From the NCBI GenBank assembly GCA_964016885.1, contig OZ024755.1, forward strand, positions 32,054,001 to 32,118,000: DNA of 64,000 nt, given 5' to 3'. Each line of letters begins with the position of its first letter. Position 1 is the first letter of the stretch. This DNA is from Eledone cirrhosa. Its lineage: Eukaryota. The notes beneath the pieces are model-generated. The model searched no databases. It saw only the letters and a list, made by a program, of their open reading frames with translations, and had not been told where the DNA came from. The translations under genes and the position numbers were made by a program. Positions 2,786 to 64,000 of the stretch are shown here, piece after piece.

Positions 2786-24987
<22,202 letters not shown>

Positions 24988-25093: not shown

Positions 25094-25099
25094 AATAAA
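25094..25099 (+). terminator. Candidate polyadenylation signal of RUVBL2
   Basis: AATAAA ~107 nt after the stop codon, followed by T/GT-rich sequence. Confidence 0.6.
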
Positions 25100-25519
25100 A
25101 GTAAATTTCACATCCATGTGTCCATTTTTTTCTACATTGTTACTACCATTTATTATAAATATGATATAGTTACTGTTTATTGATCTTGTATCAGTTATTT
25201 TAAAGATATAGTTACTACTACCTGATCTAGTATCAGTTATTTTAAAGATGATATAGTTACTGTTGGTTGAACCAGTATTATAAATATGATATAGTTACTC
25301 AGTTGATCCAGTATCACCTATTATAAATATGATATAGTTACTGTTTATTGATCTTGTATCAGTTATTTTAAAGATGATATAGTTACTACTACCTGATCTA
25401 GTATCAGTTATTTTAAAGATGTTACTATTACCTGATCTAGTATAAGTTATTTTAAAGATGAGATAGTTACTATTACTTGATCTAGTATCTAGTTATTTTA
25501 AAGATTGATATAGTTACTA

Positions 25520-25958
25520 CTAGCTGAGGTACCTGGCTTTGCCTGGCACAACAGAAAATGACTATTGGATGTGTTTGGTTTCTAGTATTAGGTGAGACAA
25601 TATGTGTGAGACAGAGACACAAAAAAAACAATCATAATCACTATTATCTTTTTCAGCTCCAAAGGACGTCATCTGAAACGTAGCGATATAACGCATAACA
25701 TTGCTTCGTTAGTAATTAGTATAGGGTTGATTAATTTCAGATAATAAAAAGAATTTATAAAAGCTAACGCAATATTGTTAAACCTTCAAAGGACTTTCAT
25801 GGGACGTTACTCTCTCACTGAATATCTAACACTTTAATTGTATCTCTCTCTGTATAACGGCCTATCTCTCTCCCTCTGTGTCTCTCTCTCTTTAGTTGTG
25901 TGTGTGTGTGTAGTTCTCGGGTGAAAACAATAAACATCTCTCTTTTTTTATATATAGA
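25520..25958 (-). mobile_element. Array Helitron, divergent edge copy
   Basis: Same termini as the array consensus, but 25545-25790 is strongly diverged. Confidence 0.8.
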
Positions 25959-26460
25959 TTACCTGATCTAGTATAAGTTATTTTAAAGATATATTTACTA
26001 TTACCTGATCCAGTATCAGTTAAAGATGATATAGTCATTATTGGTTGATCTAGTATAAGTTATTTTAAAGATATACTTACTATTACCTGATCCAGTATCA
26101 GTTAAAGATGATATAGTTATTATTGGTTGATCTAGTATAAGTTATTTTAAAGATATAGTTACTATTACCTGATCCAGTATCAGTTAAAGATGATATAGTT
26201 ATTATTGGTTGATCTAGTATAAGTTATTTTAAAGATATAGTTACTATTACCTGATCTAGTATCAGTTAAAGATGATATAGTTATTATTGGTTGATCTGGT
26301 ATCAGTTATTTTAAAGATATATTTACTATTACCTGATCCAGTATCGGTTAAAGATGATATAGTTATTATTAGTTGATCTAGTATCAGTTATTTTAAAGTT
26401 TGATATAATTACAATTACCTAATACAGTATTAGTTATTTTAAAGATTGACATAGTTACTA

Positions 26461-27005
26461 CTAGCTGAGGTACCCGGCTTTGCCTGGGAAAATAGTTAAG
26501 AGAAGGCGGATAAAAGAAAAAAATGACTGTATTGGATATGTTGAGCATGCGTTGGGGCCGTAATGTGACAAAAAAGTAGAGAATAAAAAAAAAAAACTTC
26601 CTTATTAAGCTGTGGGAGTAAACTGCTGATTAAATCGTAGCATTGGCCTTGGGTTTTAAATGTGAAATAACCATAGTCAGTAAAATCTTTTTCAGCTCCA
26701 AAGGATATCATGAAACACTGCATGACATTGCTTCTGAAGTATTTAGCTTCATTAGTACGGTCTGTAAGTAGTATATGGATAAAAGCTGGAAGGTAAATTA
26801 ATTTCAAATAGTATCAAATTTTCTTGTAAAAGCTAAACAATATAAACTTTCATGGGACGTTAGTCTCTCACTGAATATCTAACACTTTAATTGTATCTCT
26901 CTCTGTATAACGGCCTATCTCTCTCCCTCTATGTCTCTCTCTCTTTAGTTGTGTGTGTAGTTCTCGGGTGAAAACGATAAACATCTCTCTTTTTTTATAT
27001 ATAGA
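26461..27005 (-). mobile_element. Array non-autonomous Helitron, representative copy (545 bp). Other copies have their left end at 27180, 28560, 29863, 33434, 35117, 36413, 38100, 39231, 40703, 41430, 42564, 45479, 48004, 49216, 50509, 54585, 58627, 59755, 60802, ~61774, 63307
   Basis: Minus strand a|TCTATATATAAAAAAAGAGAG...CCCAGGC-AAA-GCCGGG-TACCTCAG-CTAG|t. The flanks rejoin to the empty monomer junction atagttacta|ttacctgat. Confidence 0.85.
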
Positions 27006-30000
27006 TTACCTGATCTAGTATCAGTTATTTTAAAGATATATTTACTATTACCTGATCCAGTATCAGTTAAAGATGATATAGTTATTATTGGTTGATCTAG
27101 TATCAGTTATTTTAAAGTTTGATATAATTACAATTACCTAATCCAGTATTAGTTATTTTAAAGATTGACCTAGTTACTACTAGCTGAGGTACCCGGCTTT
27201 GCCTGGGAGAATAGTTAAAAGAAGGCAGATAAAAGAAAAAAATGACTGAATTGGATATGTTAAGCATGCGTTGGGGCCGTAATGTGACAAAAAGAAGAGA
27301 ATAAAAATAAAAAAACTTCAGTATTAAGTTGTGGGAGTAAACTGCTGATTAAATCGTAGCATTGGCCTTGGATTTTAAATGTAAAATAACCAGAGTCAGT
27401 AAGATCTTTTTCAGCTCCAAAGGATGTCATATGAAACACTGCATAACATTGCTTCTGAAGTATTTAGCTTCATTAGTACGGTCTGTAAATAGTATATGGA
27501 TAAAAGCTGGAAGGTAAATTAATTTCAAATAGTATCAATTTTTCTTGTAAAAGCTAAACAATATAAAATTTCATGGGACGTTACTCTCTCACTGAATATC
27601 TAACACTTTAATTGTATCTCTCTCTGTATAACGGCCTATCTCTCTCCCTCTGTGTCTCTCTCTCTTTAGTTGTGTGTGTGTGTGTATAGTTCTCGGGTGA
27701 AAACAATAAACATCTCTCTTTTTTTATATATAGATTACCTGATCTAGTATCAGTTATTTTAAAGATATAGTTACTATTACCTGATCCAGTGTTAGTTAAA
27801 GATGATATAGTTATTATTGGTTGATCTAGTATCAATTATATTAAAGATATAGTTACTATTACCTGATCCAGTATCAGTTAAAAATAATCGTTATTATTGG
27901 TTGCTGTAGTATAAGATATTTTAAAGATATAGTTACTATTACCTGATCCAGTATCGGTTAAAAATAATCGTTATTATTGGTTGATCTAGTATAAGTTATT
28001 TTAAAGATATAGTTACTATTACCTGATCCAGTATCAGTTAAAGATGATATAGTTATTATTGGTTGCTCTAGTATAAGTTATTTTAAAGATATATTTACTA
28101 TTACCTGATCCAGTATCGGTTATAGATGATATAGTTATTATTGGTTGATCTAGTATAAGTTATTTTAAAGATATATTTACTATAACCTGATCCAGTGTCA
28201 GTTAAAGATGATATAGTTATCATTGGTTGATCTAGTATCAGTTATTTTAAAGATATAGTTACTATTACCTGATCTAGTATCAGTTAAAGATTATATAGTT
28301 ATTATTGGTTGATCTAGTATCAGTTATTTTAGAGATATATTTACTATTACCTGATCTAGTATCAGTTAAAGATGATATAGTTATTATCGGTTGATCTAGT
28401 ATAAGTTATTTTAAAGATATATTTACTATTACCGGATCCAGTATCGGTTAAAGATGATATAGTTATTATTGGTTGATCTAGTATCAGTATTTTAAAGTTT
28501 GATATAATTACGATTACCTAATCTAGTATTAGTTATTTTAAAGATTGACATAGCTACTACTAGCTGAGGTACCCGGATTTGCCTGGGAGAATAGTTAAGA
28601 AAAGGCGGATAAAAGAAAAAAATGACTGAATTGGATATGTTGAGCATGCGTTGAGGCCATAATGTGACAAAAACCTTAGGTTTTAAATGTGAAATAACCA
28701 TAGTCAGTAAGATCTTTTTCAGCTCCAAAGGATGTCATATGAAACACTGCATAACATTGCTTCTGAAGTATTTAGCTTCATTAGTACAGTCTGTAAGTAG
28801 TATATGGTTAAAAGCTGGAAGGTAAATTAATTTCAAATAGTATCAATTTTTCTTGTAAAAGCTAAACAATATAAACTTTCATGGGACGTTAGTCTCTCAC
28901 TTAATATCTAACACTTTAATTGTATCTCTCTCTGTATAACGGCCTATCTCTCTCCCTCTGTGTCTCTCTCTCTTTAGTTGTGTGTGTGTAGTTCTCGGGT
29001 GAAAACAATAAACATCTCTCTTTTTTTATATATAGATTACCTGATCTAGTGTCAGTTATTTCAAAGATATATTTACTATTACCTGATCCAGTATCAGTCA
29101 AAGATGATATAGTTATTATTGGTTGATCTAGTATCAGTTATTTTAAAGATATAGTTACTATTACCTGATCAAGTATCAGATAACGATCATATAGTTATTA
29201 TTGGTTTATCTAGTATCAGTTATTTTAAAGATATAGTTACTATTACCTGATCCAGTATCGGTTAAAGATGATATAGTTATTATTGGTTGATCCAGTATAA
29301 GTTATTTTAAAGATATATTTACTATTACCTGATCCAGTATCAGTTAAAGATGATATAGTTATTATTGGTTGATCTAGTATCAGTTATTTTAAAGATATAG
29401 TTACTATTACCTGATCCAGTGTCAGTTAAAGATGATATAGTTATTATTGGTTGATCTAGTATAAGTTATTTTAAATATATATTTACTATTACCTGATCCT
29501 GTATCATTTAAAATGATATAGTTATTATTGGTTGATCTAGTATGTTATTTTAAAGATATAGTTACTATTACCTGATCAAGTATCAGATAACGATCATATA
29601 GTTATTATTGGTTGATCTATAATCAGTTATTTTAAAGATATAGTTACTATTACCTGAGCCAATATCAGTTAAAGAAGATATAGTTATTATTGGTTGATCT
29701 AGTATCAGTTATTTTAAAGATATATTTACTATTACCGGATCCAGTATCGGTTAAAGATGATATAGTTATTATTGGTTGATCTAGTATCAGTATTTTAAAG
29801 TTTGATATAATTACAATTACCTAATCCAGTATTAGTTATTTTAAAGATTGATATAGCTACTACTAGCTGAGGTACCCGGCTTTGCCTAGGAGAATAGTTA
29901 AGAGAAAGCGGATAAAAGAAAAAAATGATTGTATTGGATATGTTGAGCACGCGTTGGGGCCGTAATGTGACAAAAAAGAAGAGAATAAAAAAAAAAAAAC

Positions 30001-30375
30001 TTCCTTATTAAGCTGTGGGTGTAAACTGCTGATTAAATTGTAGCATTGGCCTTGGGTTTTAAATGTGAAATAACCATAGTCAGTAAAATCTTTTTCAGCT
30101 CCAAAGGATGTCATATGAAACACTGCATAACATTGCTACTGAAGTATTTAGCTTCATTAGTACGGTCTGTAAGTAGTATATGGATAAAAGCTGGAAGGTA
30201 AATTAATTTCAAATAGTATCAATTTTTCTTGTAAAAGCTAAACAATATAAACTTTCATGGGACATTACTCTCTCACTGAATATCTAACACTTTAATTGTT
30301 TCTCTCTCTGTATAACGGCCTATCTCTCTCCCTCTGTGTCTCTCTCTCTTTAGTTGTGTGTGTGTGTAGTTCTCG

Positions 30376-32736
30376 TAGCATTGGCCTTGGGTTTTAAATG
30401 TGAAATAACCATAGTCAGTAAGATCTTTTTCAGAGATACAATTAAAGTGTTAGTATTCAGTGAGAGAGTAATGTCCCATGAAAATTTATATTGTTTAGCT
30501 TTTAAAAGAAAAATTGATACTATTTGAAATTAATTTACCTTCCAGCTTTTATCCATATACTACTTACAGACCGTACTAATAAATCTAAAGACTTCAGAAG
30601 CAATGTTATGCAGTGTTTCATATGACATCCTTTGGAGCTGAAAAAGATTTTACTGACTATGGTTATTTCACATTTAAAACCCAAGGCCAATGCTACGATT
30701 TAATCAGCAGTTTACTCCCACAGCTTAATAAGGAAGTTTTTTATTTTTATTCTCTTCTTTTTTGTCACATTACGGTCCCAACGCATGATCAACATATCCA
30801 ATACAATCATTTTTTCTTTTATCCGCCTTCTCTTAACTATTCTCCCAGGCAAAGCTGGGTACCTCAGCTAGTAGTAACTATGTCAATCTTTAAAATAACT
30901 AATACTGGTTTAGGTAATTGTAATTATATCAAACTTTAAATTAACTTTTACTAGATCAACCAATAATAACTATATCATATTTATCTGATACTGGATCAGG
31001 TAATAGTAAATATATCTTTAAAATAACTGATACTAGATCAAGCAATAATAACTATATCATCTTTAACTGATATTGGATCAGGTAATGGTAAATATATCTT
31101 TAAAATAACTTATACTAGATCAACCAATAATAACTATATCATCTTTAACTGATACTGGATCAGGTAATATTAACTATATCTTTAAAATAACAGATACTAG
31201 ATTAGGTAATCTATCATCATCATCATCATCGTTTAACGTCCATGTTCCACGCTTGCATAGGTTTGGACGGGAGTTTTCCCATTTGAGGCAAGAGTGGTTG
31301 TCTTGCTCGCATAGGACTGTCTGGCGGGTTTTCTACAGCTGGATGCCCTTCCTAACACCGACCACATTTACATTGTGGGACTGGGAGGTTTTTACCGTGT
31401 TGCCTACACGGCGACATTACAGCGTGGACTGTGTGTTTTTTTTTGTCGTGACACCTACACGATCTCAGTTGTTTCGGCCTGGATGTTGTGGCACCAACGT
31501 AACTTTATATTGAAAGGGGTGGTGTGACGGGGGCGTATTTTGTTAGAACTGACTAGGAGGTTTACTTTGTATTTAGGCAAGGCGGGTCTTCTCTATTACT
31601 GAGTACCGCCAAAGATCTCGGTCCAGTGACATTGTCTTGGAGAGGTGTAAGTGTGTGAGGTCGGAATTTATCTGGCCGTCCCAGGTTTTTCTGGGTCTGC
31701 CTACTCCGTGGCTACCGTCTATCTTTATTGCCCTGAATTTTTTTATACAGCTGTCGTCTTTCATGCGCATCACGTGACCATACCAACGTAGCCTTCTCTC
31801 GAGTAAACAACATCTGATCCCTCTTATTTCTAATTTCTCCCTTAGTTCGATTATGCTTTGCCGTTCGCGTATATTACTATTACACATCCAGCGGAGAATG
31901 CAAGCTTCGTTCCTCTCTAGTCTGCGTATATCCTTTGCACACAATGCCCAGGTCTCACTGCCATGCAACATTGCTGTTCGTATGCAGGCATCATACAACC
32001 TGCCTATATATAAAAAAAGAGAGATATTTATTGTTTTCCACCGAGAACTACACACACACAACTAAAGAGAGAGAGACATAGAGGGAGAGAGATAGGCCGT
32101 TATACAGAGAGAGATACAATTAAGGTGTTAGTTATTCAGTGAGAGAGTAACGTCCCATGAAAGTTTATATTGTTTAGCTTTTACAAGAAACATTGATACT
32201 ATTTCAAATTAATTTACCTTCCAGCTTTTATCCATATACTACTTACAGACCGTACTAATGAAGCTAAATATTTCGGAAGCAATGTTGTGCAGTGTTTCAT
32301 ATGACATCCTTTGGAGGTGAAAAAGATCTTACTGACTATAGTTATTTCACATTTAAAACCCAAGGCCAATGCTACGATTTAATCATCCGTTTACTGTCAC
32401 AGCTTAATAAGGAAGTTTTTTATTTTTATTCTCTTCTTTTTATCAGATTACAGCCCCAACGCATGCTCAAAATATCCAATACAGTCATTTTTTTCTTTTA
32501 TCCGCCTTCTCTTAACTATTCTCCTAGGCAAAGCTGGGTACGTCAGCTAGTAGTAACTAAGTCAATCTTTAATATAACTAATACTGGATTAGGTAATTGT
32601 AATTATATGAAACTTTAAAATAACTGATACTAGATCAACTAATAATAACTATATAATCTTTAACTGATACTGGATCAGGTAATAATAACTATATCTTTAA
32701 AATAACTGATACTAGATCAACCAATAATAATTATAT
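30376..32736. repeat. Inversion cassette copy 1 within array
   Basis: 58-bp templated insert (30376-30433), then array sequence in reverse orientation to ~32736. Confidence 0.92.
31215..32003 (-). mobile_element. 5'-truncated RTE LINE inserted in a Helitron 5' end (copy 1)
   Basis: GRLYDACIRTAMLHGSETW...LRWYGHVMRM...GRPRKTW, 3' UTR and (GAT)n tail; flanked by ctat/ctat. Confidence 0.93.
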
Positions 32737-35700
32737 AATTTTTCTTGTAAAAGCTAAACAATATGAACTTTCATGGGACGTTACTCTCTCACTGAATATC
32801 TAACACTTTAATTTTATCTCTCTCTGTATAATGGCCTATCTCTCTCCCTCTGTGTCTCTCTCTCTTTAGTTGTGTGTGTGTGTAGTTCTCGGGTAAAAAC
32901 AATAAAACATCTCTCTTTTTTTATATATAGATTACCTGATCTAGTATCAGTTATTTTAAAGATATAGTGACTATTACCTGATCCAGTGTCAGTTAAAGAA
33001 GATATAGTTATTATTGGTTGATCTAGTATAAATTATTTTAAAGATATAGTTACTATTACCTGATCCAGTATCAGTTAAATATGATATAGTTATTATTGGT
33101 TGATCTAGTAAAAGTTATTTTAAAGATATAGTTACAATTACCTGATCCAGTATCAGTTAAAGATGAGATAGTTATTATTCATTGATCTAGTATCAGTTAT
33201 TTTAAAGATATAGTTACTATTACCTGGTCCAGTATCAGTTAAAGATGATATAGTTATTATTGGTTGATCTAGTATCAGTTATTTTAAAGATATAGTTACT
33301 ATTACCTGATCCAGTATCAGTTAACGATGGTATAGTTATTATTGGTTGATCTAGTATCAGTTATTTTAAAATTTGATATAATTACAATTATCTAATCCAG
33401 TATTAGTTATTTTAAAGATTAACATAGTTACTACTAGCTGAGGTACCCGGCTTTGCCTGGGAGAATAGTTAAGAGAAGGCGGATAAAAGAAAAAATGACT
33501 GAATTGGATATGTTGAGCATGCGTTGACGCCATAATGTGACAAAAAAGAAGAGAATAAAAATAAAAAACATCCTTATTAAGCTGTGGGAGTAAACTGCTG
33601 ATTAAATCGTAGCATTGGCCTTGGATATTAAATGTGAAATAACCATAGTCAGTAAGATCTTTTTCAGCTCCAAAGGATGTCATATGAAACACTGCATAAC
33701 ATTGCTTCTGAAGTATTTAGCTTCATTAGTACGGTCAGTAAATTGTATATGGATAAAAGCTGGAGGTAAACTAATTTCAAATAGTATCAATTTTTCTTGT
33801 AAAAGCTAAACAATATAAACTTTCATCGGACATTACTCTCTCACTGAATATCTAACACTTTAATTGTATCTCTCTCCCTCTGTGTCTCTCTCTCTTTAGT
33901 TGTGTGTGTGTATTGTTCTCGGGTGAAAACAATAAAACATCACTCTTTTTTTATATATAGATTACCTGATCTAGTATCAGTTATTTTAAAGATATAGTTA
34001 CTATTACCTGATCCAGTACCAGTTAAAGATGATATAGTTATTATTGGTTGATCTAGTATCAGTTATTTTAAAGATATAGTTACTATTACCTGATCCAGTG
34101 ACAGTTAAAGATGATATAGTTATTATTGGTTGATCTAGTATCAGTTATTTTAAAGATATAGTTACTATTACCTGATCCAGTACCAGTTAAAGATGATATA
34201 GTTATTATTGGTTGATCTAGTATCAGTTATTTTAAAGATATAGTTACTATTACCTGATCCAGTGAGAGTTAAAGATGATATAGTCATTATTGGTTGATCT
34301 AGTATCAGTTATTTTAAAGATATAGTTACTATTACCTGATCTAGTATCAGTTAAAGATGATATAGTTATTATTGCTTGATCTGGTATCAGTTATTTTAAA
34401 GGTATATTTACTATTACCTGATCCAGTACCAGTTAAAGATGATATAGTTATTATTGGTTGATCTAGTATCAGTTATTTTAAAGATATAGTTACTATTACC
34501 TGATCCAGTATCAGTTAAAGATGTTATAGTCATTATTGGTTGATCTAGTATCAGTTATTTTAAAGATATAGTTACTATTACCTGATCCAGTACCAGTTAA
34601 AGATGATATAGTTATTATTGGTTGATCTAGTATAAGTTATTTTAAAGATATAGTTAATATTACCTGATCCAGTATCAGTTAAAGATATAATTATTATTGG
34701 TTGATCTAGTATCAGTTATTTTAAAGATATAGTTACTATTACCTGATCCAGTATCAGTTAAAGATGTTATAGTCATTATTGGTTGATCTAGTATCAGTTA
34801 TTTTAAAGATATAGTTACTATTACCTGATCCAGTATCAGTTAAAGATGATATAGTTATTATTGGTTGATCTAGTATCAGTTATTTTAAAGATATAGTTAC
34901 TATTACCTGATCCAGTATCAGTTAAAGATGTTATAGTCATTATTGGTTGATCTAGTATCAGTTATTTTAAAGATATAGTTACTATTACCTGATCCAGTAT
35001 CAGTTAAAGATGATATAGTTATTATTGGTTGATCTAGTATCCGTTATTTTAAAGTTTGATATACTTACAATTACCTAATCCAGTTTTAGTTATTTTAAAG
35101 ATTGACATAGTTACTACTAGCTGAGGTACCCGTCTATGCCTAGGAGAATAGTTAAGAGAAGGCGGATAAAAGAAGAAAATGACTGTATTGGATATGTTGA
35201 GCACGCGTTGAGGTCGTAATGTGACAAAAAAGAAGAGAATAAAAATAAAAAAACTTCCTTATTAAGCTGTGGGAGTAAACTGCTGATTAAATCGTAGCAT
35301 TGGCCTTGGATTTTAAATGTGAAATAACCAGAGTCAGTAAGATGTTTTTCAGCTCCAAAGGATGTCATATGAAACACTGCATAACATTGCTTCTGAAGTA
35401 TTTAGCTTCATTAGTACGGTCTGTAAGTAGTATATGGATAAAAGCTGGAAGGTATATTAATTTCAAATAGTATCAATTTTTATAGTAAAAGCTAAACAAG
35501 ATAAATTTTCCTGGGACGTTACTCTCTCACTATATATCTAACACTTTAATCGTATCTCTCTTTGTATAACGGCCTATGTCTCTTCCTCTGTGTCACTCAC
35601 TCTGTAGTTGTGTGTGTGTAGTTCTTGGGTTAAAACAATAAACATCTCTCTTTTTGTATATATAGATTACCTGATCTAGTGTCAGTTATTTTAAAGATAT

Positions 35701-38700
35701 AGTTACTATTACCTGATCCAGTATCAGTTAAAAATAATCGTTATTATTGGTTGATCTAGTATAAGTTATTTTAAAGATATAGTTACTATTACCTGATGCA
35801 GTATCAGTTAAAGATGATATAGTTATTATTGGTTGATCTAGTATAAGTTATTTTAAAGATATATTTACTGTTACCTGATCCAGTATCGGTTATAGATGTT
35901 ATAGTTATTATTGGTTGCTCTAGTATAAGTTATTTTAAAGATATATTTACTGTAACCTGATCCAGTATCGGTTATAGATGATATAGTTATTATTGGTTGA
36001 TCTAGTATAAGTTATTTTAAAGATATATTTACTATAACCTGATCCAGTGTCAGTTAAAGATGATATAGTTATTATTGGTTGATCTAGTATCAGTTATTTT
36101 AAAGATATTGTTACTATTACCTGATCTAGTATCAGTTAAAGATGATATAGTTATTATTGGTTGATCTAGTATAAGTTATTTTAAAGATATATTTACTATT
36201 ACCGGATCCAGTATCGGTTAAAGATGATATAGTTATTATTGGTTGATCTAGTATCAGTTATTTTAAAGATATAGTTACTATTACCTGATCCAGTATCAGT
36301 TAACGATGGTATAGTTATTATTGGTTGATCTAGTATCAGTTATTTTAAAATTTGATATAATTACAATTATCTAATCCAGTATTAGTTATTTTAAAGATTA
36401 ACATAGTTACTACTAGCTGAGGTACCCGGCTTTGCCTGGGAGAATAGTTAAGAGAAGGCGGATAAAAGAAAAAATGACTGAATTGGATATGTTGAGCATG
36501 CGTTGACGCCATAATGTGACAAAAAAGAAGAGAATAAAAATAAAAAACATCCTTATTAAGCTGTGGGAGTAAACTGCTGATTAAATCGTAGCATTGGCCT
36601 TGGATATTAAATGTGAAATAACCATAGTCAGTAAGATCTTTTTCAGCTCCAAAGGATGTCATATGAAACACTGCATAACATTGCTTCTGAAGTATTTAGC
36701 TTCATTAGTACGGTCAGTAAATTGTATATGGATAAAAGCTGGAGGTAAACTAATTTCAAATAGTATCAATTTTTCTTGTAAAAGCTAAACAATATAAACT
36801 TTCATCGGACATTACTCTCTCACTGAATATCTAACACTTTAATTGTATCTCTCTCCCTCTGTGTCTCTCTCTCTTTAGTTGTGTGTGTGTGTGTATTGTT
36901 CTCGGGTGAAAACAATAAAACATCACTCTTTTTTTATATATAGATTACCTGATCTAGTATCAGTTATTTTAAAGATATAGTTACTATTACCTGATCCAGT
37001 ACCAGTTAAAGATGATATAGTTATTATTGGTTGATCTAGTATCAGTTATTTTAAAGATATAGTTACTATTACCTGATCCAGTGACAGTTAAAGATGATAT
37101 AGTTATTATTGGTTGATCTAGTATCAGTTATTTTAAAGATATAGTTACTATTACCTGATCCAGTACCAGTTAAAGATGATATAGTTATTATTGGTTGATC
37201 TAGTATCAGTTATTTTAAAGATATAGTTACTATTACCTGATCCAGTGAGAGTTAAAGATGATATAGTCATTATTGGTTGATCTAGTATCAGTTATTTTAA
37301 AGATATAGTTACTATTACCTGATCTAGTATCAGTTAAAGATGATATAGTTATTATTGCTTGATCTGGTATCAGTTATTTTAAAGGTATATTTACTATTAC
37401 CTGATCCAGTACCAGTTAAAGATGATATAGTTATTATTGGTTGATCTAGTATCAGTTATTTTAAAGATATAGTTACTATTACCTGATCCAGTATCAGTTA
37501 AAGATGTTATAGTCATTATTGGTTGATCTAGTATCAGTTATTTTAAAGATATAGTTACTATTACCTGATCCAGTACCAGTTAAAGATGATATAGTTATTA
37601 TTGGTTGATCTAGTATAAGTTATTTTAAAGATATAGTTAATATTACCTGATCCAGTATCAGTTAAAGATATAATTATTATTGGTTGATCTAGTATCAGTT
37701 ATTTTAAAGATATAGTTACTATTACCTGATCCAGTATCAGTTAAAGATGTTATAGTCATTATTGGTTGATCTAGTATCAGTTATTTTAAAGATATAGTTA
37801 CTATTACCTGATCCAGTATCAGTTAAAGATGATATAGTTATTATTGGTTGATCTAGTATCAGTTATTTTAAAGATATAGTTACTATTACCTGATCCAGTA
37901 TCAGTTAAAGATGTTATAGTCATTATTGGTTGATCTAGTATCAGTTATTTTAAAGATATAGTTACTATTACCTGATCCAGTATCAGTTAAAGATGATATA
38001 GTTATTATTGGTTGATCTAGTATCCGTTATTTTAAAGTTTGATATACTTACAATTACCTAATCCAGTTTTAGTTATTTTAAAGATTGACATAGTTACTAC
38101 TAGCTGAGGTACCCGTCTATGCCTAGGAGAATAGTTAAGAGAAGGCGGATAAAAGAAGAAAATGACTGTATTGGATATGTTGAGCACGCGTTGAGGTCGT
38201 AATGTGACAAAAAAGAAGAGAATAAAAATAAAAAAACTTCCTTATTAAGCTGTGGGAGTAAACTGCTGATTAAATCGTAGCATTGGCCTTGGATTTTAAA
38301 TGTGAAATAACCATAGTCAGTAAGATCTTTTTCAGCTCCAAAGGATGTCATATGAAACACTGCATAACATTGCTTCTGAAGTATTTAGCTTCATTAGTAC
38401 GGTCTGTAAGTAGTATATGGATAAAAGCTGGAAGGTATATTAATTTCAAATAGTATCAATTTTTATAGTAAAAGCTAAACAAGATAAATTTTCCTGGGAC
38501 GTTACTCTCTCACTATATATCTAACACTTTAATCGTATCTCTCTTTGTATAACGGCCTATGTCTCTTCCTCTGTGTCACTCACTCTGTAGTTGTGTGTGT
38601 GTAGTTCTTGGGTTAAAACAATAAACATCTCTCTTTTTGTATATATAGATTACCTGATCTAGTGTCAGTTATTTTAAAGATATAGTTACTATTACCTGAT

Positions 38701-50700: not shown

Positions 50701-51022
50701 GTTTTAAATGTGAAATAACCATAGTCAGTAAGATCTTTTTCAGCTCCAAAGGATGTCATATGAAACACTGCATAACATTGCTTCTGAAGTATTTAGTTTC
50801 ATTAGTACGGTCTGTAAGTAGTATATGGATAAAAGCTGGAAGGTAAATTAATTTCAAATAGTATCAATTTTTCTTGTAAAAGCTAAACAATATAAACTTT
50901 CATGGGATGTTACTCTCTCACTGAATATCTAACAATTTAATTGTATCTCTCTCTGTATAACGGCCTATCTCTCTCCCTCTGTGTCTCTCCCTCTTTAGTT
51001 GTGTGTGTGTGTGTAGTTCTCG

Positions 51023-53473: not shown

Positions 53474-55096
53474 AATTTTTCTTGTAAAAGCTAAACAATA
53501 TGAACTTTCATGGGACGTTACTCTCTCACTGAATATCTAACACTTTAATTTTATCTCTCTCTGTATAATAGGCTATCTCTCTCCCTCTGTGTCTCTCTCT
53601 CTTTAGTTGTGTGTGTGTGTGTGTGTAGTTCTCGGGTGAAAACAATAAAACATCTCTCTTTTTTTATATATAGATTACCTGATCTAGTATCAATTATTTT
53701 AAAGATATAGTTACTATTACCTGATCCAGTATCAGTTAAAGATGATATAGTTATTATTGATTGATCTAGTATAAGTTATTTTAAAGATATATTTACTATT
53801 ACCTGATCCAGTATCAGTAAAAGATGATATAGTTATTATTGGTTGATCTAGTATAAGTTATTTTATAGATATATTTACTATTACCTGATCCAGTATCAGT
53901 AAAAGATGATATAGTTATTATTGGTTGATCTAGTAAAAGTAATTTTAAAGTTATAGTTACAATTACCTGATCCAGTACCAGTTAAAGATGATATAGTTAT
54001 TATTCGTTGATCTAGTAGAAGTTATTTTAAATATATATTTACTATTACCTGATCCAGTATCATTTAAAGATGATATAGATATTATTGGTTGATCTAGTAT
54101 CAGTTATTTTAAAGATATAGTTACTATTACCTGATCCAGTATCAGTTAAAGATGATATAGTTATTATTGGTTGATCTAGTATGTTATTTTAAAGATATAG
54201 TTACTATTACCTGATCCAGTATCAGTTAAAGATGATATAGTTATTATTGGTTGATCTAGTATAAGGTATTTTAAAGATATATTTACTATTACCTGATCCA
54301 GTACCAGTTAAAGATGATATAGTTATTATTGGTTGATCTAGTATAAGTTATTTTAAAGATATAGTTACTATTACCTGATCCAGTATCAGTTAAAGATGAT
54401 ATAGTTATTATTGGTTGATCTAGTATCAGTTATTTTAAAGATATAGTTAATATTACCTGATCCAGTATCAGTTAAAGATGATATAGTTATTATTGGTTGA
54501 TCTAGTATCAGTTATTTTAAAGTGTGATATACTTACAATTACCTAATCCAGTTTTAGTTATTTTAAAGATTGACATAGTTACTACTAGCTGAGGGACCCG
54601 GCTTTGCCTGGGAGAATAGTTAAGAGAAGGCGGATAAAAGAAGAAAATGACTGTATTGGATATGTTGAGCACGCGTTGAGGTCGTAATGTAACAAAAAAG
54701 AAGAGAATAAAAATAAAAAACTTCCTTATTAAGCTGTGGGAGTAAACTGCTGATTAAATCGTAGCATTGGCCTTGAATTTTAAATGTGAAATAACCATAG
54801 TCAGTAAGATCTTTTTCAGCTCCAAAGGATATCATATGAAACGCTGCATAACATTGCTTCTGAAGTATTTAGCTTCATTAGTACGGTCTGTAAGTAGTAT
54901 ATGGATAAAAGCTGGAAGGTCAATTAATTTCAAATAGTATCAATTTTTCTTGTAAAAGCTAAACAATATAAACTTTCATGGGACGTTACTCTCTCACTGA
55001 ATATCTAACACTTTAATTGTATCTCTCTCTGTATAACCGCCTATCTCTCTCCCTCTGTGTCTCTCTCTCTTCAGTTGTGTGTGTGTGTAGTTCTCG

Positions 55097-57395
55097 TAGC
55101 ATTGGCCTTGGGTTTTAAGTGTGAAATAACCATAGTCAGTAAGATCTTTTTCAGAGATACAATTAAAGTGTTAGTATTCAGTGAGAGAGTAATGTCCCAT
55201 GAAAATTTTTATTGTTTAGCTTTTAAAAGAAAAATTGATACTACTTGAAATTAATTTACCTTCCAGCTTTTATCCATATACTACTTACAGACCGTACTAA
55301 TGAAGCTAAATACTTCAGAAGCAATGTTATGCAGTGTTTCATATGACATCCTTTGGAGCTGAAAAAGATCTTACTGACTATGGTTATTTCACATTTAAAA
55401 TCCAAGGCCAATGCTACGATTTAATCAGCAGTTTACTCCCACAGCTTAATAAGGAAGTTTTTTATTTTTATTCTCAACTTTTTTGTCACATTACGGCCTC
55501 AACGCGTGCTCAACATATCCAATACAGGCATGTTTTTCTTTTATCTGCCTTCTCTTAACTATTCTCCCAGGCAAAGCCGGGTACCTCAGCTAGTAGTAAC
55601 TATGTCAATCTTTAAAATAACTAATACTGGTTTAGGTAATTGTAATTATATCAAACTTTAAATTAACTTTTACTAGATCAACCAATAATAACTATATCAA
55701 CTTTAACTGATACTGGATCAGGTAATAGTAAATATATCTTTAAAATAACTGATACTAGATCAACCAATAATAACTATATCATCTTTAACTGATACTGGAT
55801 CAGGTAATAGTAACTATATCTTTAAAATAACTGATACTAGATTAGGTAATTTATCATCATCATCGTTTAACGTCCATGTTCCACGCTTGCATGGGTTTGG
55901 ACGTGAATTTTCCCACTTGAGGCAAGAGTGGTTGTCTTGCTCGCATAGGACTGTCTGGCGGGTTTTCTACAGCTGGATGCCCTTCCTAACACCAACCACA
56001 TTTACAGTGTGGGACTGGGAGGTTTTTACCGTGTTGCCTACACGGCGACATTACAGCGTGGACTGTGTGTTTTTTTGTCGTGACACCTACACGATCTCAT
56101 TTGTTTCGGCCTGGATGTTGTGGCACCAACGTAACTTTATATTGAAAGGGGCGGTGTGGATGGGGTAGGGGTGGTGTGACGGGGGCGTATTTTGTTAGAG
56201 ATGCCTACTGACTGTAGTTGGTTTACTTTGTATTTAGGCAAGGCGGGTCTTCTCTATTACTGAGTACTGCCAAAGATCTCGGTCCAGTGACATAGTCTTG
56301 GAGAGGTGTAAGTGTGTGAGGTCGGAATTTATCAGGCCGTCCCAGGTTTTTCTGGGTCTGCCTACTCCGTGGCTACCGTCTATCTTTTTTGCCCTGAACT
56401 TTTTTATACAGCTGTCGTCTTTCATGCGCATCACGTGACCATACCAATGTAGCCTTCTCTCGAGTAAACAACATCTGATCCCTCTTATTTCTAATTTCTC
56501 CCTTAGCTCGTTTATGCTTTGCCGTTCACGTATATTACTATTACACATCCAGCGGAGAATGCAAGCTTCGTTCCTCTCTAGTCTGCGTATATCCTCTGCA
56601 CACAATGCCCAGGTCTCACTGCCATGCAACATTGCTGTTCGTATGCAGGCATCATACAACCTGCCTATATATAAAAAAAAAGAGATATTTATTGTTTTCC
56701 ACAGAACTACACACACACAACTAAAGAGATAGAGACATAGAGGGAGAGAGATATGCTGTTATACAGAGAGAGATGCAATTAAAGTGTTAGATATTCAGTG
56801 AGATAGTAACGTCCCATGAAAGTTCATATTGTTTAGCTTTTACAAGAAAAATTGATTCTATTTGAAATTAATATACCTTTCAGCTTTTATCCACATACTA
56901 CTTACAGACCGTACTAATGAAGCTAAATATTTCAGAAGCAATGTTATGCAGTGTTTCATATGACATCCTTTGGAGCTGAAAAAGATCTTACTGACTATAG
57001 TTATTTCACATTTCAAACCCAAGGCCAATAATACGATTTAATCAGCAGGTTACTCTCACAGCTTAATATGGAAGTTTTTTATTTTTATTCTCTTCTTTTT
57101 GTCAGATTACAGCCCCAACGCATGCTCAAAATATCCAATACAGTCATTTTTTTCTTTTATCCGCCTTCTCTTAACTACTCTCCCAGGCAAAGCTGGGTAC
57201 CTCAGCTAGTAGTAACTATGTCAATCTTTAAAATAACTAATACTGGATTAGGTAATTGTAATTATATGAAACTTTAAAATAACTGATACTAGATCAACCA
57301 ATAATAACTATATCATCTGTAACTGATACTGGATCAGGTAATAGTAACTATATCTTTAAAATAACTGATACTACATCAACCAATAATAATTATAT
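55097..57395. repeat. Inversion cassette copy 3
   Basis: Same three junctions as 30376-32736. Confidence 0.92.
55855..56664 (-). mobile_element. RTE insert copy 3
   Basis: Same truncation point and insertion site; slightly more diverged. Confidence 0.93.
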
Positions 57396-60300
57396 AATTT
57401 TTCTTGTAAAAGCTAAACAATATAAACTTTCATGGGACGTTACTCTCTCACTGAATATCTAACACTTTAATTTTATCTCTCTCTGTATAATGGCTTATCT
57501 CTCTCCCTCTGTGTCTCTCTCTCTTTAGTTGTGTGTGTGTGTGTAATTCTCGTGTGAAAACAATAAACATCTCTCTTTTTTTATATATAGATTACTTGAT
57601 CTAGTGTCAGTTATTTTAAAGATATAGTTACTATTACCTGATCCAGCATCAGTTAAAGATGATATAGTTATTATTGGTTGATCTAGTAAAACTTATTTTA
57701 AAGATATAGTTACAATTACCTGATCCAGTACCAGTTAAAGATGATATAGTTATTATTCGTTGATCTAGTATAAGTTATTTTAAAGATATAGTTACTATTA
57801 CCTGATCCAGTATCAGTTAAAGATGATATAGTTATTATTGGTTGATCCAGTATCAGTTATTTTAAAGATATAGTTACTATTACCTGATCTAGTATCAGTT
57901 ATTTTAAAAATATAGTTAATATTACCTGATCTAGTATCAGTTAAAGATGATATAGTTATTATTCGTTGATCTAGTATCAGTTATTTTAAAGATATAGTTA
58001 CTATTAGCTGATCCAGTACCAGTTAAAGATGATATAGTTATTATTTGTTGATCTAGTATAAGATATTTTAAAGATATAGTTACTATTACCTGATCAAGTA
58101 TCAATAAAGGTGATACAGTTATTATTGGTTTATCTAGTATCAGTTATTTTAAAGATATAGTTACTATTACATTATCCAGTATCAGTTACAGATGATATAG
58201 TTATTATTGGTTGATCTAGTATCAGTTATTTTAAATATATAGTTACTATTACCTGATCCAGTATCGGTTGAAGATGATATAGTTATTATTGGTTGATCTA
58301 GTATCAGTTATTTTAAAGATATAGTTAATATTACCTGATCCAGTATCAGTTAAAGATGATATAGTTATTATTGGTTGATCTAGTATAAGTTATTTTAAAG
58401 ATATAGTTAATATTACCTGATCCAGTATCAGTTAAAGATGATATAGTTATTATTGGTTGATCTAGTATCAGTTATTTTAAAGATATAGTTACTATTATCT
58501 GATCCAGTATCAGTTACAGATGATATAGTTATTATTGGTTGATCTAGTATCAGTTATTTTAAAGTGTCATATAATTACAATTACCTAATCCAGTTTTAGT
58601 TATTTTAAAGATTGACATAGTTACTACTAGCTGAGGGACCCGGCTTTGCCTGGGAGAATAGTTAAGAGAAGGCGGATAAAAGAAGAAAATGACTGTATTG
58701 GATATGTTGAGCACGCGTTGAGGTCGTAATGTGACAAAAAAGAAGAGAATAAAAATAAAAAACTTCCTTATTAAGCTGTGGGCGTAAACTGCTGATTAAA
58801 TCGTAGCATTGGCCTTGGATTTTAAACGTGAAATAACTATAGTCAGTAAGATCTTTTTCAGCTCCAAAGGATGTCATATGAAACACTGCATAACATTGCT
58901 TCTGAAGTATTTAGCTTCACTAGTACGGTCTGTAAGTAGTATATGGATAAAAGCTGGAAGGTATATTAATTTCAAATAGTATCAATTTTTCTTGTAAAAG
59001 CTAAACAAGATAAATTTTCATGGGACGTTACTCTCTCGCTGAATATCTACCACTTTAATCGTATCTCTCTTTGTATAACGGCCTATGTCTCTTCCTCTGT
59101 GTCTCTCACTCTGTAGTTGTGTGTGTAGTTCTCGGGTGAAAACAATAATCATCTCTCTTTTTTTATATATAGATTACCTGATCTAGTGTCAGTTATTTTA
59201 AAGATATAGTTACTATTACCTGATCCAGCATCAGTTAAAGATGATATAGTTATTATTGGTTCATCTAGTATCAGTTATTTTAAAGATATATTTAATATTA
59301 CATGATCCAGTATCAGTTAAAGATGATATAGTTATTATTGGTTGATCTAGTATAAGTTATTTTAAAGATATATTTACTATTACCTGATCCAGTATCGGTT
59401 AAAGATGATATAGTTATTATAGGTTGATCTAGTATAAGTTATTTTAAAGATATAGTTACTATTACCTGATCCAGTATCGGTTAAAGATGATATAGTTATT
59501 ATTGGTTGATCTTGTATAAGTTATTTTAAAGATATATTTACTATTACCTGATCCAGTATCAGTTAAATATGATATAGTTGTTATTGGTTGATCTAGTATA
59601 AGTTATTTTAAAGATATAGTTAATATTACCTGATCTAGTATCAATTAAAGATATAGTTATTATTGGTTGATCTAGTATCAGTTATTTTAAAGTTTGATAT
59701 AATTACAATTATCTAATCCAGTATTAATTATTTTGAAGATTGACATAGTTACTAGTAGCTGAGGTACACGGCTTTGCCTGGGAGAATAGTTAAGAGAAGG
59801 CGGATAAAAGATAAAAATGACTGTATTGGATATGTTGAGCATGCGTTGGGGCCGTAATGTGACAAAAAAGTTGAGAATAAAAATAAAAAACTTCCTTATT
59901 AAGCTGTGGGAGTAAACTGCTGATTAAATCGTAGCATTGGCCTTGGGTTTTAAATGTGAAATAACCATAGTCAGTAAAATCTATTTCAGCTCCAAAGGAT
60001 GTCATATGAAACACTGCATAACATTACTTCTGAAGTATTTAGTTTCATAGTATGGTCTGTAAGTAGTATATGAATAAAAGCTGGAAGGTAAATTAATTTC
60101 AAGTAGTATCAATTTTTCTTGTAAAAGCTAAACAATATAAACTTTCATGGGACGTTACTCTCTCACTGAATATCTAACACTTTAATTGTATCTCTCTCTG
60201 TATAACAGCCTATCTCCCTCCCTCTGCGTCTCTCTCTCTTTAGTTGTGTGTGTCTGTGTAGTTCTCGTGTTAAAACAATAAACATCTCTCTTTTTTTATA

Positions 60301-63300
60301 TATAGAATACCTGATCTAGTATCAGTTATTTGAAAGATATAGTTACTATTACCTGATCCAGTATCAGTTAAAGATGATATAGTTATTATTGGTTGATCTA
60401 GTATCAGTTATTTTAAAGATATAGTTAATATTACCTGATCTAGTATCGGTTAAAGATATAATTATTATTGGTTGATCTAGTATCAGTTATTTTAAAGATA
60501 TAGTTACTATTACCTGATCCAGTACCAGTTAAAGATGATATAGTTATTATTGGTTGATCTAGTATCAGTTATTTTAAAAATATAGTTACTATTACCTGAT
60601 CCAGTATCAGTTAAAGATGATAGTTATTATTGGTTGATCTAGTATAAGTTATTTTAAAGATATATTTACTATTACCTGATCCAGTATCGGTTATAGATGA
60701 TATAGTTATTATTGGTTGATCTAGTAAGTTATTTTAATGTTTGATATAATTAGAATTACCTAATCCAGTATTAGTTATTTTGAAGATTGACCTAGTTACT
60801 ACTAGCTGAGGTACCCGGCTTTGCTTGGGAGAATAGTTAAGAGAAGGTGGATAAAAGAAAAAAATGACTGTATTGGATATATAGGGCACGCGTTGAGGTC
60901 GTATTGTGACAAAAAAGATGAGAATAAAAATAAAAAAACTTCCTTATTAAGCTGTGGGAGTAAACTGCTGATTAAATCGTAGCATTGGCCTTGGGTTTTA
61001 AATGTGAAATAACCATAGTCAGTAAGATCTTTTTCAGCTCCAAAGGATGTCATATGAAACACTGCATAACATTGCTTCTGAAGTATTTAGCTTCATTAGT
61101 ACGGTCTGTAAGTAGTATATGGATAAAAGCTGGAAGGTATATTAATTTCAAATAGTATCAATTTTTCTTGTAAAAGCTAAACAATATAAACTTTCATGGG
61201 ACGTTACTCTCTCATTTATATCTAACACTTTAATTGCATCTCTCTCTGTATAACAGCCTATCTCCCTCCCTCTGTGTCTCTCTCTCTTTAGTTGTGTGTG
61301 TCTGTGTAGTTCTCGTGTTAAAACAATAAATATCTTTCTTACTTTATATATAGATTACCTGATCTAGTATCAGTTATTTTAAAGATATAGTTACTATTAC
61401 CTGATCCAGTATCAGTTAAAGATGATATAGTTATTATTGGTTGATCTAGTATAAGTTATTTTAAAGATATATTTACTATTACCTTATCCAGTGTCAGTTA
61501 AAGATGATATAGTTATTATAGGTTGATCTAGTATCAGTTATTTTAAAGATATAGTTACTATTACCTGATCTAGTATCAGTTAAAGATGATATAGTTATTA
61601 TTGGTTGATGTAGTATAAGTTAATTCAAAGATATATTTACTATTACCGGATCCAGTATCGGTTAAAGATGATATAGTTATTATTGGTTGATCTAGTATCA
61701 GATATTTTAAAGTTTGATATAATTACAATTATCTAATCCAGTATTAGTTATTTTAAACATTGACATAGTTCTACCAGCTGAGGTACCCGGCTTTGCCTGG
61801 GAGAATAGTTAAGAGAAGGCTGATAAAAGAAAAAAATGACTGAATTGGATATGTTGAGCATGGGTTGGTGCCGTAATGTGACAAAAAGTAGAGAATAAAA
61901 ATAAAAAACTTCAGTATTAAGCTGTGGGAGTAAACTGCTGATTAAATCGTAGCATTGGCCTTGGATTTTAAATGTGAAATAACTATAGTCAGTAAGATCT
62001 TTTTCAGCTCCAAAGGATGTCATATGAAACACTGCATGACATTGCTTCTGAAGTATTTAGCTTCATTAGTACGGTCTGTAAATAGTATATGGATAAAAGC
62101 TGGAAGGTAAATTAATTTCAAATAGTATCAATTTTTCTTGTAAAAGCTAAACAATATAAACTTTCATGGGACGTTACTCTCTCATTTATATCTAACACTT
62201 TAATTGCATCTCTCTCTGTATAACAGCCTATCTCTCTCCCTCTGTGTCTCTCTCTCTTTAGTCGTGTGTGTCTGTGTAGTTCTCGTGTTAAAACAATAAA
62301 TATCTTTCTTTTTTTATATATAGATTACCTGATCTAGTATCAATTATTTTAAAGATATAGTTACTATTACCTGATCCAGTATCAGTTAAAGATGATATAG
62401 TTATTATTGATTGATCTAGTATAAGTTATTTTAAAGATATATTTACTATTACCTGATCCAGTATCAGTAAAAGATGATATAGTTATTATTGGTTGATCTA
62501 GTATAAGTTATTTTATAGATATATTTACTATTACCTGATCCAGTATCAGTAAAAGATGATATAGTTATTATTGGTTGATCTAGTATAAGTTATTTTAAAG
62601 ATATATTTACTATTACCTTATCCAGTGTCAGTTAAAGATGATATAGTTATTATTGGTTGATCTAGTATAAGTTATTTTAAAGATATAGTTTCTATTACCT
62701 GATCCAGTATCAGTTAAAGATGATATAGTTATTATTTGTTGATCTGGTATAAGTTATTTTAAAGATATATTTACTATTACCTGATCCAGTATCGGTTAAA
62801 GATGATATAGTATTATTGGTTGATCTAGTATAAGTTATTTTAAAGATATAGTTACTATTACCTGATCCAGTATCAGTTAAAGATGATATAGTTATTATTG
62901 GTTGATCTAGTATCAGTTATTTTAAAGATATAGTTACTATTACCTGATCCAGTATTGGTTAAAGATGATATAGTTATTATTGGTTGATCAGTTATTTTAA
63001 AGATATAGTTACTATTACCTGATCCAGTACCAGTTAAAGATGATATAGTTATTATTGGTTGATCTAGTATCAGTTATTTTAAAAATATAGTTAATATTAC
63101 CTGATCCAGTATCAGTTAAAGATGATAGTTATTATTGGTTGATCTAGTATAAGTTATTTTAAAGATATATTTACTATTACCTGATCCAGTATCGGTTATA
63201 GATGATATAGTTATTATTGGTTGATCTAGTAAGTTATTTTAATGTTTGATATAATTACAATTACCTAATCCAGTATTAGTTATTTTGAAGATTGACCTAG

Positions 63301-64000
63301 TTACTACTAGCTGAGGTACCCGGCTTTGCTTGGGAGAATAGTTAAGAGAAGGTGGATAAAAGAAAAAAATGACTGTATTGGATATATAGGGCACGCGTTG
63401 AGGTCGTATTGTGACAAAAAAGATGAGAATAAAAATAAAAAAACTTCCTTATTAAGCTGTGGGAGTAAACTGCTGATTAAATCGTAGCATTGGCCTTGGG
63501 TTTTAAATGTGAAATAACCATAGTCAGTAAGATCTTTTTCAGCTCCAAAGGATGTCATATGAAACACTGCATAACATTGCTTCTGAAGTATTTAGCTTCA
63601 TTAGTACGGTCTGTAAGTAGTATATGGATAAAAGCTGGAAGGTATATTAATTTCAAATAGTATCAATTTTTCTTGTAAAAGCTAAACAATATAAACTTTC
63701 ATGGGACGTTACTCTCTCATTTATATCTAACACTTTAATTGCATCTCTCTCTGTATAACAGCCTATCTCCCTCCCTCTGTGTCTCTCTCTCTTTAGTTGT
63801 GTGTGTCTGTGTAGTTCTCGTGTTAAAACAATAAATATCTTTCTTACTTTATATATAGATTACCTGATCTAGTATCAGTTATTTTAAAGATATAGTTACT
63901 ATTACCTGATCCAGTATCAGTTAAAGATGATATAGTTATTATTGGTTGATCTAGTATAAGTTATTTTAAAGATATATTTACTATTACCTTATCCAGTGTC

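Follow-up and report, generated by a model that had tools for sequence, protein, structure and literature searches.

The window analysed here, a 64,000-bp stretch of DNA, carries a composite tandem array that most likely (roughly 75%) arose from one Helitron insertion at an A|T site of a local minisatellite, followed by passive co-amplification of the element with its repeat through out-of-register homologous exchange and not through a transposase. A trans-acting RepHel would have inserted the Helitron once into a run of 42–46-bp monomers, and mispairing of the monomers to the left and right of the insertion could then have duplicated the Helitron together with both flanks, whether by unequal crossover, gene conversion or break-induced replication, which are indistinguishable here. 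Later exchange would have changed the spacers in steps of 82, duplicated 1.3–3 kb blocks, shuffled variants and generated three copies of an inversion-plus-retroelement cassette, all of which is visible as pattern in the array. Homogenisation presumably halts inside the leftmost copy, the outer part of which would retain an older state.

Architecture and reality of the array

The array spans position 25150 to the end of the window (64000), where it runs off, and its unit consists of a 545-bp element and 2–29 copies of an 82-bp (42+40) repeat. It had been described as beginning at 25520, but repeat onset lies near 25150, with old, unhomogenised 38–46-bp monomers forming the left edge (25150..25519; TRF period 45, 8.6 copies, 78% matches). 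Beyond a first, edge copy of the Helitron, 31 further element segments alternate with 82-bp tracts (25959..64000), and the repeat DNA of this interval amounts to ~20.1 kb, or 245 monomer equivalents. The 32 element-matching segments, between 25520 and 63859, agree with the ~32 Helitron copies of the preliminary description, but only 20 possess both ends: 17 full copies, two with a 72-bp deletion, and the edge copy. The CTAG is mutated in two of these 20. The incomplete segments lack the TC end (six), lack the CTAG end (three) or have a TC end split by a retroelement (three), and six of the 32 are inverted. Overall, there are 29 3′ (CTAG) ends versus 23 intact 5′ (TC) ends. Intact units measure 719–2915 bp (19 intact neighbours), matching the ~0.7 to ~2.9 kb given earlier, and spacer length follows n × 82 + ~10 bp, with n = 2–29. 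An identical pair of diverged subunits borders all 28 non-edge CTAG ends; the earlier statement that the same diverged monomers flank the CTAG-keeping copies therefore stands for these and fails for the first copy (25520–25958), whose left flank consists of older monomers unlike those elsewhere in the array.

The 82-bp repeat is best regarded as locus-specific host DNA lying outside the element, a conclusion supported by tests. Its depth relative to the flank is 7.9–8.5, close to the 8.8 monomers that a unit of the window contains, and this agreement suggests that the repeat is not spread elsewhere, in keeping with locus specificity of the 82-mer. The repeat lies beyond the TC and CTAG termini, as first proposed for a host-derived satellite, and dispersed relatives of the element exit at CTAG into unrelated flanks. 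An alternative, in which a HINE/Helentron-type element carries the repeat within it and the “spacer” consists of the right module of one neighbour fused to the left module of the next, would draw on a layout common in molluscs and flies (PMC7492417, available portion). Since the spacer itself is bounded by TC and CTAG, since the loose-end boundary of the dispersed copies places the repeat outside the element, and since the depth ratio points to no spread of the repeat elsewhere, this reading is already contradicted and has next to no chance of being correct.

It is conceivable that the array is an assembly expansion, as the three recent duplications described below show 99.6% identity, which could mean that two haplotypes were strung together. 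Against this stand a mean identity of just 94.1% among 22 near-full element copies, cassettes that are only 96.5–97.4% identical, and contig depth, a rough gauge of unit number, which suggests roughly 40–54 units compared with 29 in the window, in ratios that fit one locus. The region 26385–27085 was also compared with reads from four of six runs (X1, X2, X4 and X5), of which X1 and X2 derive from one sample that may be the assembly's own source. In two samples of a separate study, RAD reads reproduce the array's allele fractions at 11 listed sites (r = 0.95 and 0.91), and reads of that study cross the CTAG-repeat junction and carry array variants. Because these reads carry its variants, the array is not an assembly artefact; the expansion reading, which the preliminary description had named as a possible refutation, is largely refuted and extremely improbable.

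Helitron identity of the element

The reference copy (26461..27005, minus strand) places the 5′ TC at 27005, a hairpin at 26473–26488 and the 3′ CTAG at 26461–26464, so that the element reads a|TC-TATATA…hairpin, 8 nt, CTAG|t. Its excision in silico restores an intact monomer junction without a target duplication, upholding the proposed insertion between A and T. For fixed boundaries on either strand, the chance of TC…CTRR at A|T is ~1.7e-4 from base composition, and CTAG is kept at 26 of the 28 non-edge 3′ ends. The element contains no long ORF, the longest stop-free frame being 67 codons (in the copy at 27180). The subterminal GC-rich hairpin, a six-pair stem with a bulge (−4.4 kcal/mol), had been called diagnostic, and this is borne out by its position and by homologous ends that carry perfect stems at the same place, but not by folding alone, for which comparison with shuffled sequences was not significant (z −1.36 and −1.45); it is thus on position and homology, not on folding score, that the hairpin counts as evidence. 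The homologous stems fold at −5.3 to −6.4 kcal/mol in three of four loci, and the weaker stem of the array would favour read-through.

Dispersed relatives are evident on the CTAG side, where 44 (X1) and 58 (X2) contigs depart from the element at 26459/26460, their flanks differing from one another (agreement 0.45–0.46), and where one RAD locus in X5 (107 reads) represents a dispersed copy whose homology ends at the 3′ terminus. The search for dispersed copies with the same termini was less productive on the TC side, as none among the matches listed for this species end at the 5′ TC and depth at 26961–27008 is low. Five of five metagenome loci share only the terminal 28–34 bp with the element, and all read a|CTAG. 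In one of these contigs (L001), from another organism, the shared 3′ end lies ~650 bp behind an ORF with Helraiser as its best structure match (E 3e-49 versus 1e-10 for cellular Pif1), based on 1545 bases that exclude the Rep half. A second (L005) holds a 290-bp solo element at A|T with both ends the same as those of the array element, and the ORF of a third (L002) gave no match in a Pfam search. The element belongs to a dispersed Helitron family as a non-autonomous member, and the identity first suggested rests on TC/CTAG termini at A|T, relatives ending at CTAG, and a 3′ end in common with a contig encoding a Helraiser-like helicase.

How the array was amplified

Unequal exchange and Rep/Hel read-through had been left as equals, and five tests now favour recombination, leaving read-through poorly supported. 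None of the 29 CTAG ends is joined directly to a TC end. Of 26 spacers, 25 have an a-to-a subunit junction in the host flank on the TC side (the remaining one is cut by the analysis coordinates), as opposed to 2 of 395 interior junctions, and DNA upstream of the TC nick is therefore part of every unit. Three recent tandem duplications, at 33238..39200 (period ~2980 bp, with two elements per copy), 43750..48797 (period 2525 bp) and 60455..64000 (period 2505 bp, cut by the window end), have their located edges 150–650 bp inside the repeat: a breakpoint within the tract in the first two and the left edge in the third. The copies are recombinant, with variants shuffled among them, and site incompatibility rises with distance from 0.08 to 0.22 (P = 0.0005; 17 copies, 55 sites). 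The terminator decays like the interior, variability being 4.6% in the hairpin, 3.6% in the 3′ 30 bp and 3.3% in the interior, and the majority hairpin is kept in only 13 of 28 copies. Finally, nine segments without an intact TC end were nevertheless triplicated. The array thus presents the tandem TE-plus-host-repeat unit and single founder of a composite (compound-monomer) satellite, together with the concerted evolution by recombination and the higher-order blocks of satellites.

The triplicated segments belong to a cassette that, like the neighbouring gene, was absent from the preliminary description. Its first copy (29863..32931) comprises a truncated element, a 61-bp templated piece and an inverted segment (30432–32740), with three junctions showing 2–3 bp of microhomology; the second (50509..53674) is 97.4% identical to it, and the third (54585..57591) is 96.5–96.6% identical to the other two. 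The element copies of the cassette have lost their TC ends. Within copy 1 lies a 5′-truncated non-LTR retroelement (31215..32007, minus strand), with a 144-codon ORF end, a (GAT)n tail and a 4-bp CTAT duplication, inserted 4–5 bp inside the Helitron TC end. From its motif, we take it to belong to the RTE clade. Of 24 candidates, 14 prove homologous to the ORF at E ≤ 1e-20; a Pfam search with the ORF gave no match, and eight of the 14 homologues gave no class (one match fell below the cut-off). The 3′ part of the retroelement recurs near 10515–10748.

Amplification by the Helitron machinery would require a trans-acting RepHel to nick at TC, continue past the weak terminator into the repeat, and multiply the unit by rolling circle. 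Helraiser reads through in ~11.7% of events, and in 36% when the hairpin is missing, according to the accessible part of PMC4778049, which also describes circles with an exact CTAG-to-TC junction. The weakened array hairpin and invariant TC end are consistent with such a route, and a Helitron-spaced T122 cluster has been so interpreted (10.1101/2021.06.02.446622, available text). It is nevertheless highly doubtful here, given the missing CTAG|TC junctions, the host flank upstream of TC in every unit, the neutral decay of the terminator, runs of like units that never exceed two in the window, breakpoints that fall within the repeat, and the amplification of TC-less and inverted copies as well. 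A circle of one or more units excised by host recombination, then rolled and reinserted without a transposase (eccDNA), would keep both flanks and in-register junctions, as observed. An early burst of this kind could also account for copies that are near star-like (96.5% to majority) and show only a weak identity-distance trend (22 copies; rho −0.15, P 0.04), which disappears when five recent twins are removed (rho −0.05, P 0.26). Yet all recent events are two-copy duplications of differing periods (1293, 2505, 2525 and 2983 bp), and spacer lengths differ between nearly all neighbouring units, making this route very unlikely. Quite improbable, too, is the notion that the dead Helitron ends are the engine, with RepHel supplied from elsewhere nicking the conserved TC ends and these nicks setting off the recombination and template switches by which the minisatellite keeps expanding and rearranging; if true, a transposase would be driving satellite amplification in place, where transcription of an essential gene ends. 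At the TC end, the final 10 bases contain no substitutions in 197 cells, where ~3 variant alleles would be expected from interior rates (estimated P ~0.05, gaps uncounted), and this invariance counts against passive co-amplification by recombination only.

That element and repeat were co-amplified from one founder is supported by tests, because nine alleles frequent in dispersed relatives (contigs or reads) occur in none of 28–31 array copies, as the initial proposal of one insertion amplified with its host minisatellite would predict. A challenge comes from the edge copy (25520..25958, minus strand; 439 bp), whose TC-side 163 bases equal those of the copy at 27180 and which sits at the same insertion base. 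Its diverged CTAG-side part is only 79.8% identical to that copy (202 of 253 aligned bases, 13 gaps), so that the interior differs from the array by 20% plus 13 gaps as opposed to ~10% at flank and terminus, a pattern that uniform decay after a single insertion does not explain well. In reads and contigs, the edge copy is seen only via partial matches, and the contig matching it has depths of 13.5 (X1) and 10.7 (X2), similar to other single-locus contigs. Two independent insertions of related Helitron subfamilies, with units generated by unequal exchange between them, or a single insertion that a dispersed copy subsequently converted, could produce this divergence. An 11-bp insert and sequence close to it are also common to the edge copy and dispersed contigs but missing from the array type (loose end 26705, 13 contigs, X2), and the available portion of PMC5932611 documents TE arrays that arose by double insertion. 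On the other hand, edge and array copies share the insertion base and a derived extra T in the adjacent monomer, both have T at a hairpin-loop site where ~60% of contig depth has C, and the array type keeps dispersed-family segments lost by the edge copy, a pattern that decay of both from a common ancestor would produce. Taken jointly, these two variants are unlikely, and they would alter only the first step of the mechanism set out above.

Relation to known systems and the neighbouring gene

TE-plus-satellite composite arrays, including a Helitron-spaced one in Drosophila, are already in print, and the present array is a clear but not new example. Neither this array nor a cephalopod counterpart turned up in a literature search that covered a minority of subscription journals; repeat sequences suggest a cephalopod host. 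The element resembles the canonical Helitrons Helraiser and Helibat1, as characterized in the accessible part of PMC4778049, in its 5′-TC, CTAG-3′, subterminal palindrome and A|T target without duplication, but it is a non-autonomous, 545-bp array passenger with a weakened hairpin 8 nt from CTAG. T122 clusters with HelitronN-1_DPe on the D. pseudoobscura Y (10.1101/2021.06.02.446622) likewise alternate a host repeat and a non-autonomous Helitron in tandem; there, the repeat is 1.5 kb, the Y is heterochromatic, and the available text interprets the clusters as Helitron-driven capture without dissecting them, whereas here a variable minisatellite lies beside a gene, with evidence of recombination. 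In potato Sobo, too, the monomer joins part of a TE to a genomic tandem repeat, the two being amplified together, but the TE is an LTR retrotransposon and homogeneity reaches 99%, in contrast to the fourfold unit-length variation and 94% identity seen here (comparison limited to what PMC8091179 relates). Human teucer-ajax (10.1101/2021.07.12.451456, available text) similarly alternates a fixed block with a short-repeat tract of varying length, an arrangement attributed to unequal crossing over, but at several loci and without a Helitron. In the Drosophila R1 array, as far as PMC5932611 was available, a single TE insertion gains copies with its host array, but that array is itself a TE, and its passengers, present in a minority of units, are retroelements. 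Plant rolling-circle Helitron arrays (Xiong 2016, as cited in the accessible part of PMC12628747) also hold Helitron sequence in tandem, but with many 5′ ends and one 3′ end, unlike the present host DNA between copies; given 0/29 direct head-to-tail junctions and 29 3′ versus 23 intact 5′ ends, assignment to that class was rejected. Oyster Cg_HINE, from the available portion of PMC7492417, likewise has a Helitron adjoining short tandem repeats, but inside the element; the Helentron/HINE class was also rejected, as the internal tandem repeats required between two modules are missing and the repeat lies outside TC and CTAG.

The array shows that finding Helitron sequence in tandem does not suffice to infer rolling-circle amplification, which simple sequence tests can tell apart from recombination. 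Moreover, the array offers a compact record of satellite growth in 39 kb: the Helitron serves as a dated marker, the two original flanks are preserved, one edge has escaped homogenisation, and an inversion and a retroelement of later date are present along with recent duplications. Its onset lies ~55 bp past the poly(A) signal of a spliced RuvB-like gene of the TIP49 family (5751..24987, plus strand), whose last exon ends in ENMDTN-stop near 24987, with AATAAA at 25094. From its sequence, the gene is presumably a RUVBL2-like paralogue; all five exons tested match TIP49/TIP49_C, four of them above the curated cut-off. An array of at least 40 kb that begins so close to the end of a housekeeping gene could, judging from its sequence, serve as a usable length-polymorphism locus.

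Structure and origin of the array

A composite tandem array extends from ~25150 to the window's end and alternates a 545-bp element (reference copy 26461–27005, minus strand) with spacers of 2–29 copies of an 82-bp repeat, itself composed of 42-bp and 40-bp subunits; over its first 370 bp the monomers are old and irregular. The preliminary description counted ~32 Helitron copies, and 32 segments indeed match the element, six of them inverted, but just 17 are full. The others carry a common 72-bp deletion (two), are interrupted at the TC end by an insert (three), lack that end (six), consist of the TC part alone (three) or represent the divergent edge copy (one). Mean identity among 22 near-full copies is 94.1%, and intact units measure 719–2915 bp, matching the ~0.7 to ~2.9 kb first estimated.

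The possibility that assembly had expanded the array is contradicted by RAD data of a separate study: reads of two samples begin at the element's SphI site and cross CTAG into the same diverged monomer. Allele fractions in these reads follow those of the window copies (r 0.95 and 0.91 at 11 sites, among 40 of 158 difference rows), with the r values inflated by three near-fixed sites. Flank depth roughly suggests ~40–54 units overall. Because the repeat-to-flank depth ratio (7.9–8.5) equals the number of monomers per unit in the window (8.8), the 82-mer appears restricted to units of this kind, in line with its proposed locus-specific, host-derived nature. Moreover, nine alleles common among dispersed relatives of the element occur in 0 of 28–31 array copies; the array therefore descends from one founder.

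The leftmost element (25520–25958, minus strand) is identical to the array copy at 27180 over 163 TC-side bases, while its outer side shows 79.8% identity and 13 gaps. It retains pieces of dispersed contigs lost from the array type and is without others that the array kept. Edge and array copies occupy one and the same insertion base and have in common an extra, derived T in the neighbouring monomer. Most simply read, the leftmost element is an old copy left unhomogenised at the margin of the array; a second insertion, or conversion by a dispersed copy, is an unlikely source for it.

Composite satellites of a TE and a repeat are already known, and the array joins them. It works like the potato Sobo compound satellite (as described in PMC8091179), human composites such as teucer-ajax and the Drosophila R1 array with insertions expanded inside it, and is comparable to a reported cluster on the D. 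pseudoobscura Y of a host repeat spaced by a Helitron. It is neither a HINE with internal repeats nor a plant-type rolling-circle array (as described in PMC12628747). Searches of open-access literature brought up no report of this array.

Helitron identity of the element

Read on the minus strand, the element runs a|TC, hairpin, 8 nt, CTAG|t (CTAG at 26461–26464, TC at 27005), and its removal leaves an intact subunit junction, as originally described; the chance probability of such ends at such a target is ~1.7e-4. These features agree with the Helraiser description (PMC4778049). Four public sequencing runs were aligned to one array unit with short flanks. In two contig sets, both from one sample, 44 and 58 contigs stop matching the element at 26459/26460 and continue into AT-rich flanks that differ from one another, and CTAG is thus the end of dispersed relatives; among the matches listed, no TC boundary of dispersed copies was seen. 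With the single-copy contig of the edge as reference, depth is roughly 240–370-fold at the 3′ end and in the thousands in some inner blocks, although depth is no copy number. Scanning metagenome contigs for the element's first 20 bases yielded five loci, all reading a|CTAG and sharing 28–34 terminal bases alone with the element. In one (L001), the Helitron end lies ~650 bp behind an ORF with Pif1 domains that by structure matches the Helraiser transposase best (E 3e-49); another (L005) is a solo element of 290 bp with both ends at A|T. The Helitron identity is well supported.

The 20-base 3′ end is identical in the five metagenome contigs, their sequence being otherwise unlike save for ~150 bp shared by L001 and L004 only; it is a widespread, conserved terminus, possibly of a horizontally spread lineage. 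In the contig L003, a pair of 95-bp inverted repeats (171–1171) and a central palindrome (1185–1234) lie beside the Helitron end. Most of the dispersed relatives, like three metagenome ends, carry GCGAAGC, the very stable DNA mini-hairpin, in the hairpin; the loop in the array (26481–26485, minus strand) has GCAAAGC in 28/28 copies and the edge copy.

Amplification of the array

Unequal exchange and Rep/Hel rolling-circle read-through had been proposed as equal options; recombination is favoured by five tests, whereas read-through fares poorly. In RepHel circles, according to the Helraiser study (PMC4778049), TC follows CTAG without intervening sequence, a junction formed by 0 of 29 CTAG ends in the window. 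An a-to-a subunit junction marks the TC-side flank in 25 of 26 spacers (interior junctions of that type, 2/395), so every unit includes host sequence from upstream of the nick, which is not copied by read-through starting at TC. For the three youngest tandem duplications (~2980, 2525 and 2505 bp), those edges that could be located fall within the repeat, a fourth tract terminates within an element, and runs of more than two like units are absent from the window. Sites become more incompatible with distance, at 0.08 within 30 columns and 0.22 beyond 240 (P = 0.0005; 17 copies, five recent twins omitted), and the element copies are thus recombinant. The terminator decays much like the interior (4.6% variation in the hairpin and 3.6% in the 3′ 30 bp vs 3.3%), the majority hairpin being kept in 13 of 28 copies.

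A ~3-kb cassette is present three times (29863–32931, 50509–53674 and 54585–57591; 96.5–97.4% identity). It carries an inversion, whose three junctions show 2–3 bp of microhomology, and a templated piece of 61 bp, a pattern that would be expected of replication template switching. It also includes a truncated retroelement inserted just inside a TC end; counting TC-less and TC-split segments, nine without an intact TC end were amplified.

The array is real: a composite satellite in a good state of preservation, in which the Helitron is a passenger. Host recombination is its most likely origin, with a probability of about 0.75. Against host recombination, the 10 terminal bases at the TC end do not vary (0 substitutions in 197 cells), and three of the four homologous ends form a stronger hairpin than the array does. 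That RepHel nicks drive array instability seems quite improbable.

The adjoining gene and other elements

A spliced gene of the TIP49 family (RuvB-like), presumably RUVBL2, lies in the left 25 kb, with at least 14 exons (5751–24987), a stop near 24987 and AATAAA at 25094, so that the repeat begins ~55 bp behind this signal. Several introns contain minisatellites as well, with units of 56 bp (15 copies, at 12625), 29 bp (13 copies, at 14921), 41 bp (26 copies, at 21051) and 44 bp (4.7 copies, at 23525), so tandem growth is a general tendency of the locus. More retroelement-like intronic fragments were noted by eye at 7000–7340, 10500–10750 (this piece aligned), 14060–14460 and 15600–16250; a (GAT)n or (ATTGA)n tail follows some of them.

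A second Helitron-like element (1174–2289), unrelated to that of the array and in the same orientation, has a left end a|CTAG with hairpin-like sequence, a right end ...TATATATAGA|t and an A|T target. A third, intronic one (17590–18170) reads a|CTAG ... TATAGTTTAGA|t, gave no clear hairpin on folding, and has an apparent partial copy, judged by eye, near the window start (620–1060).
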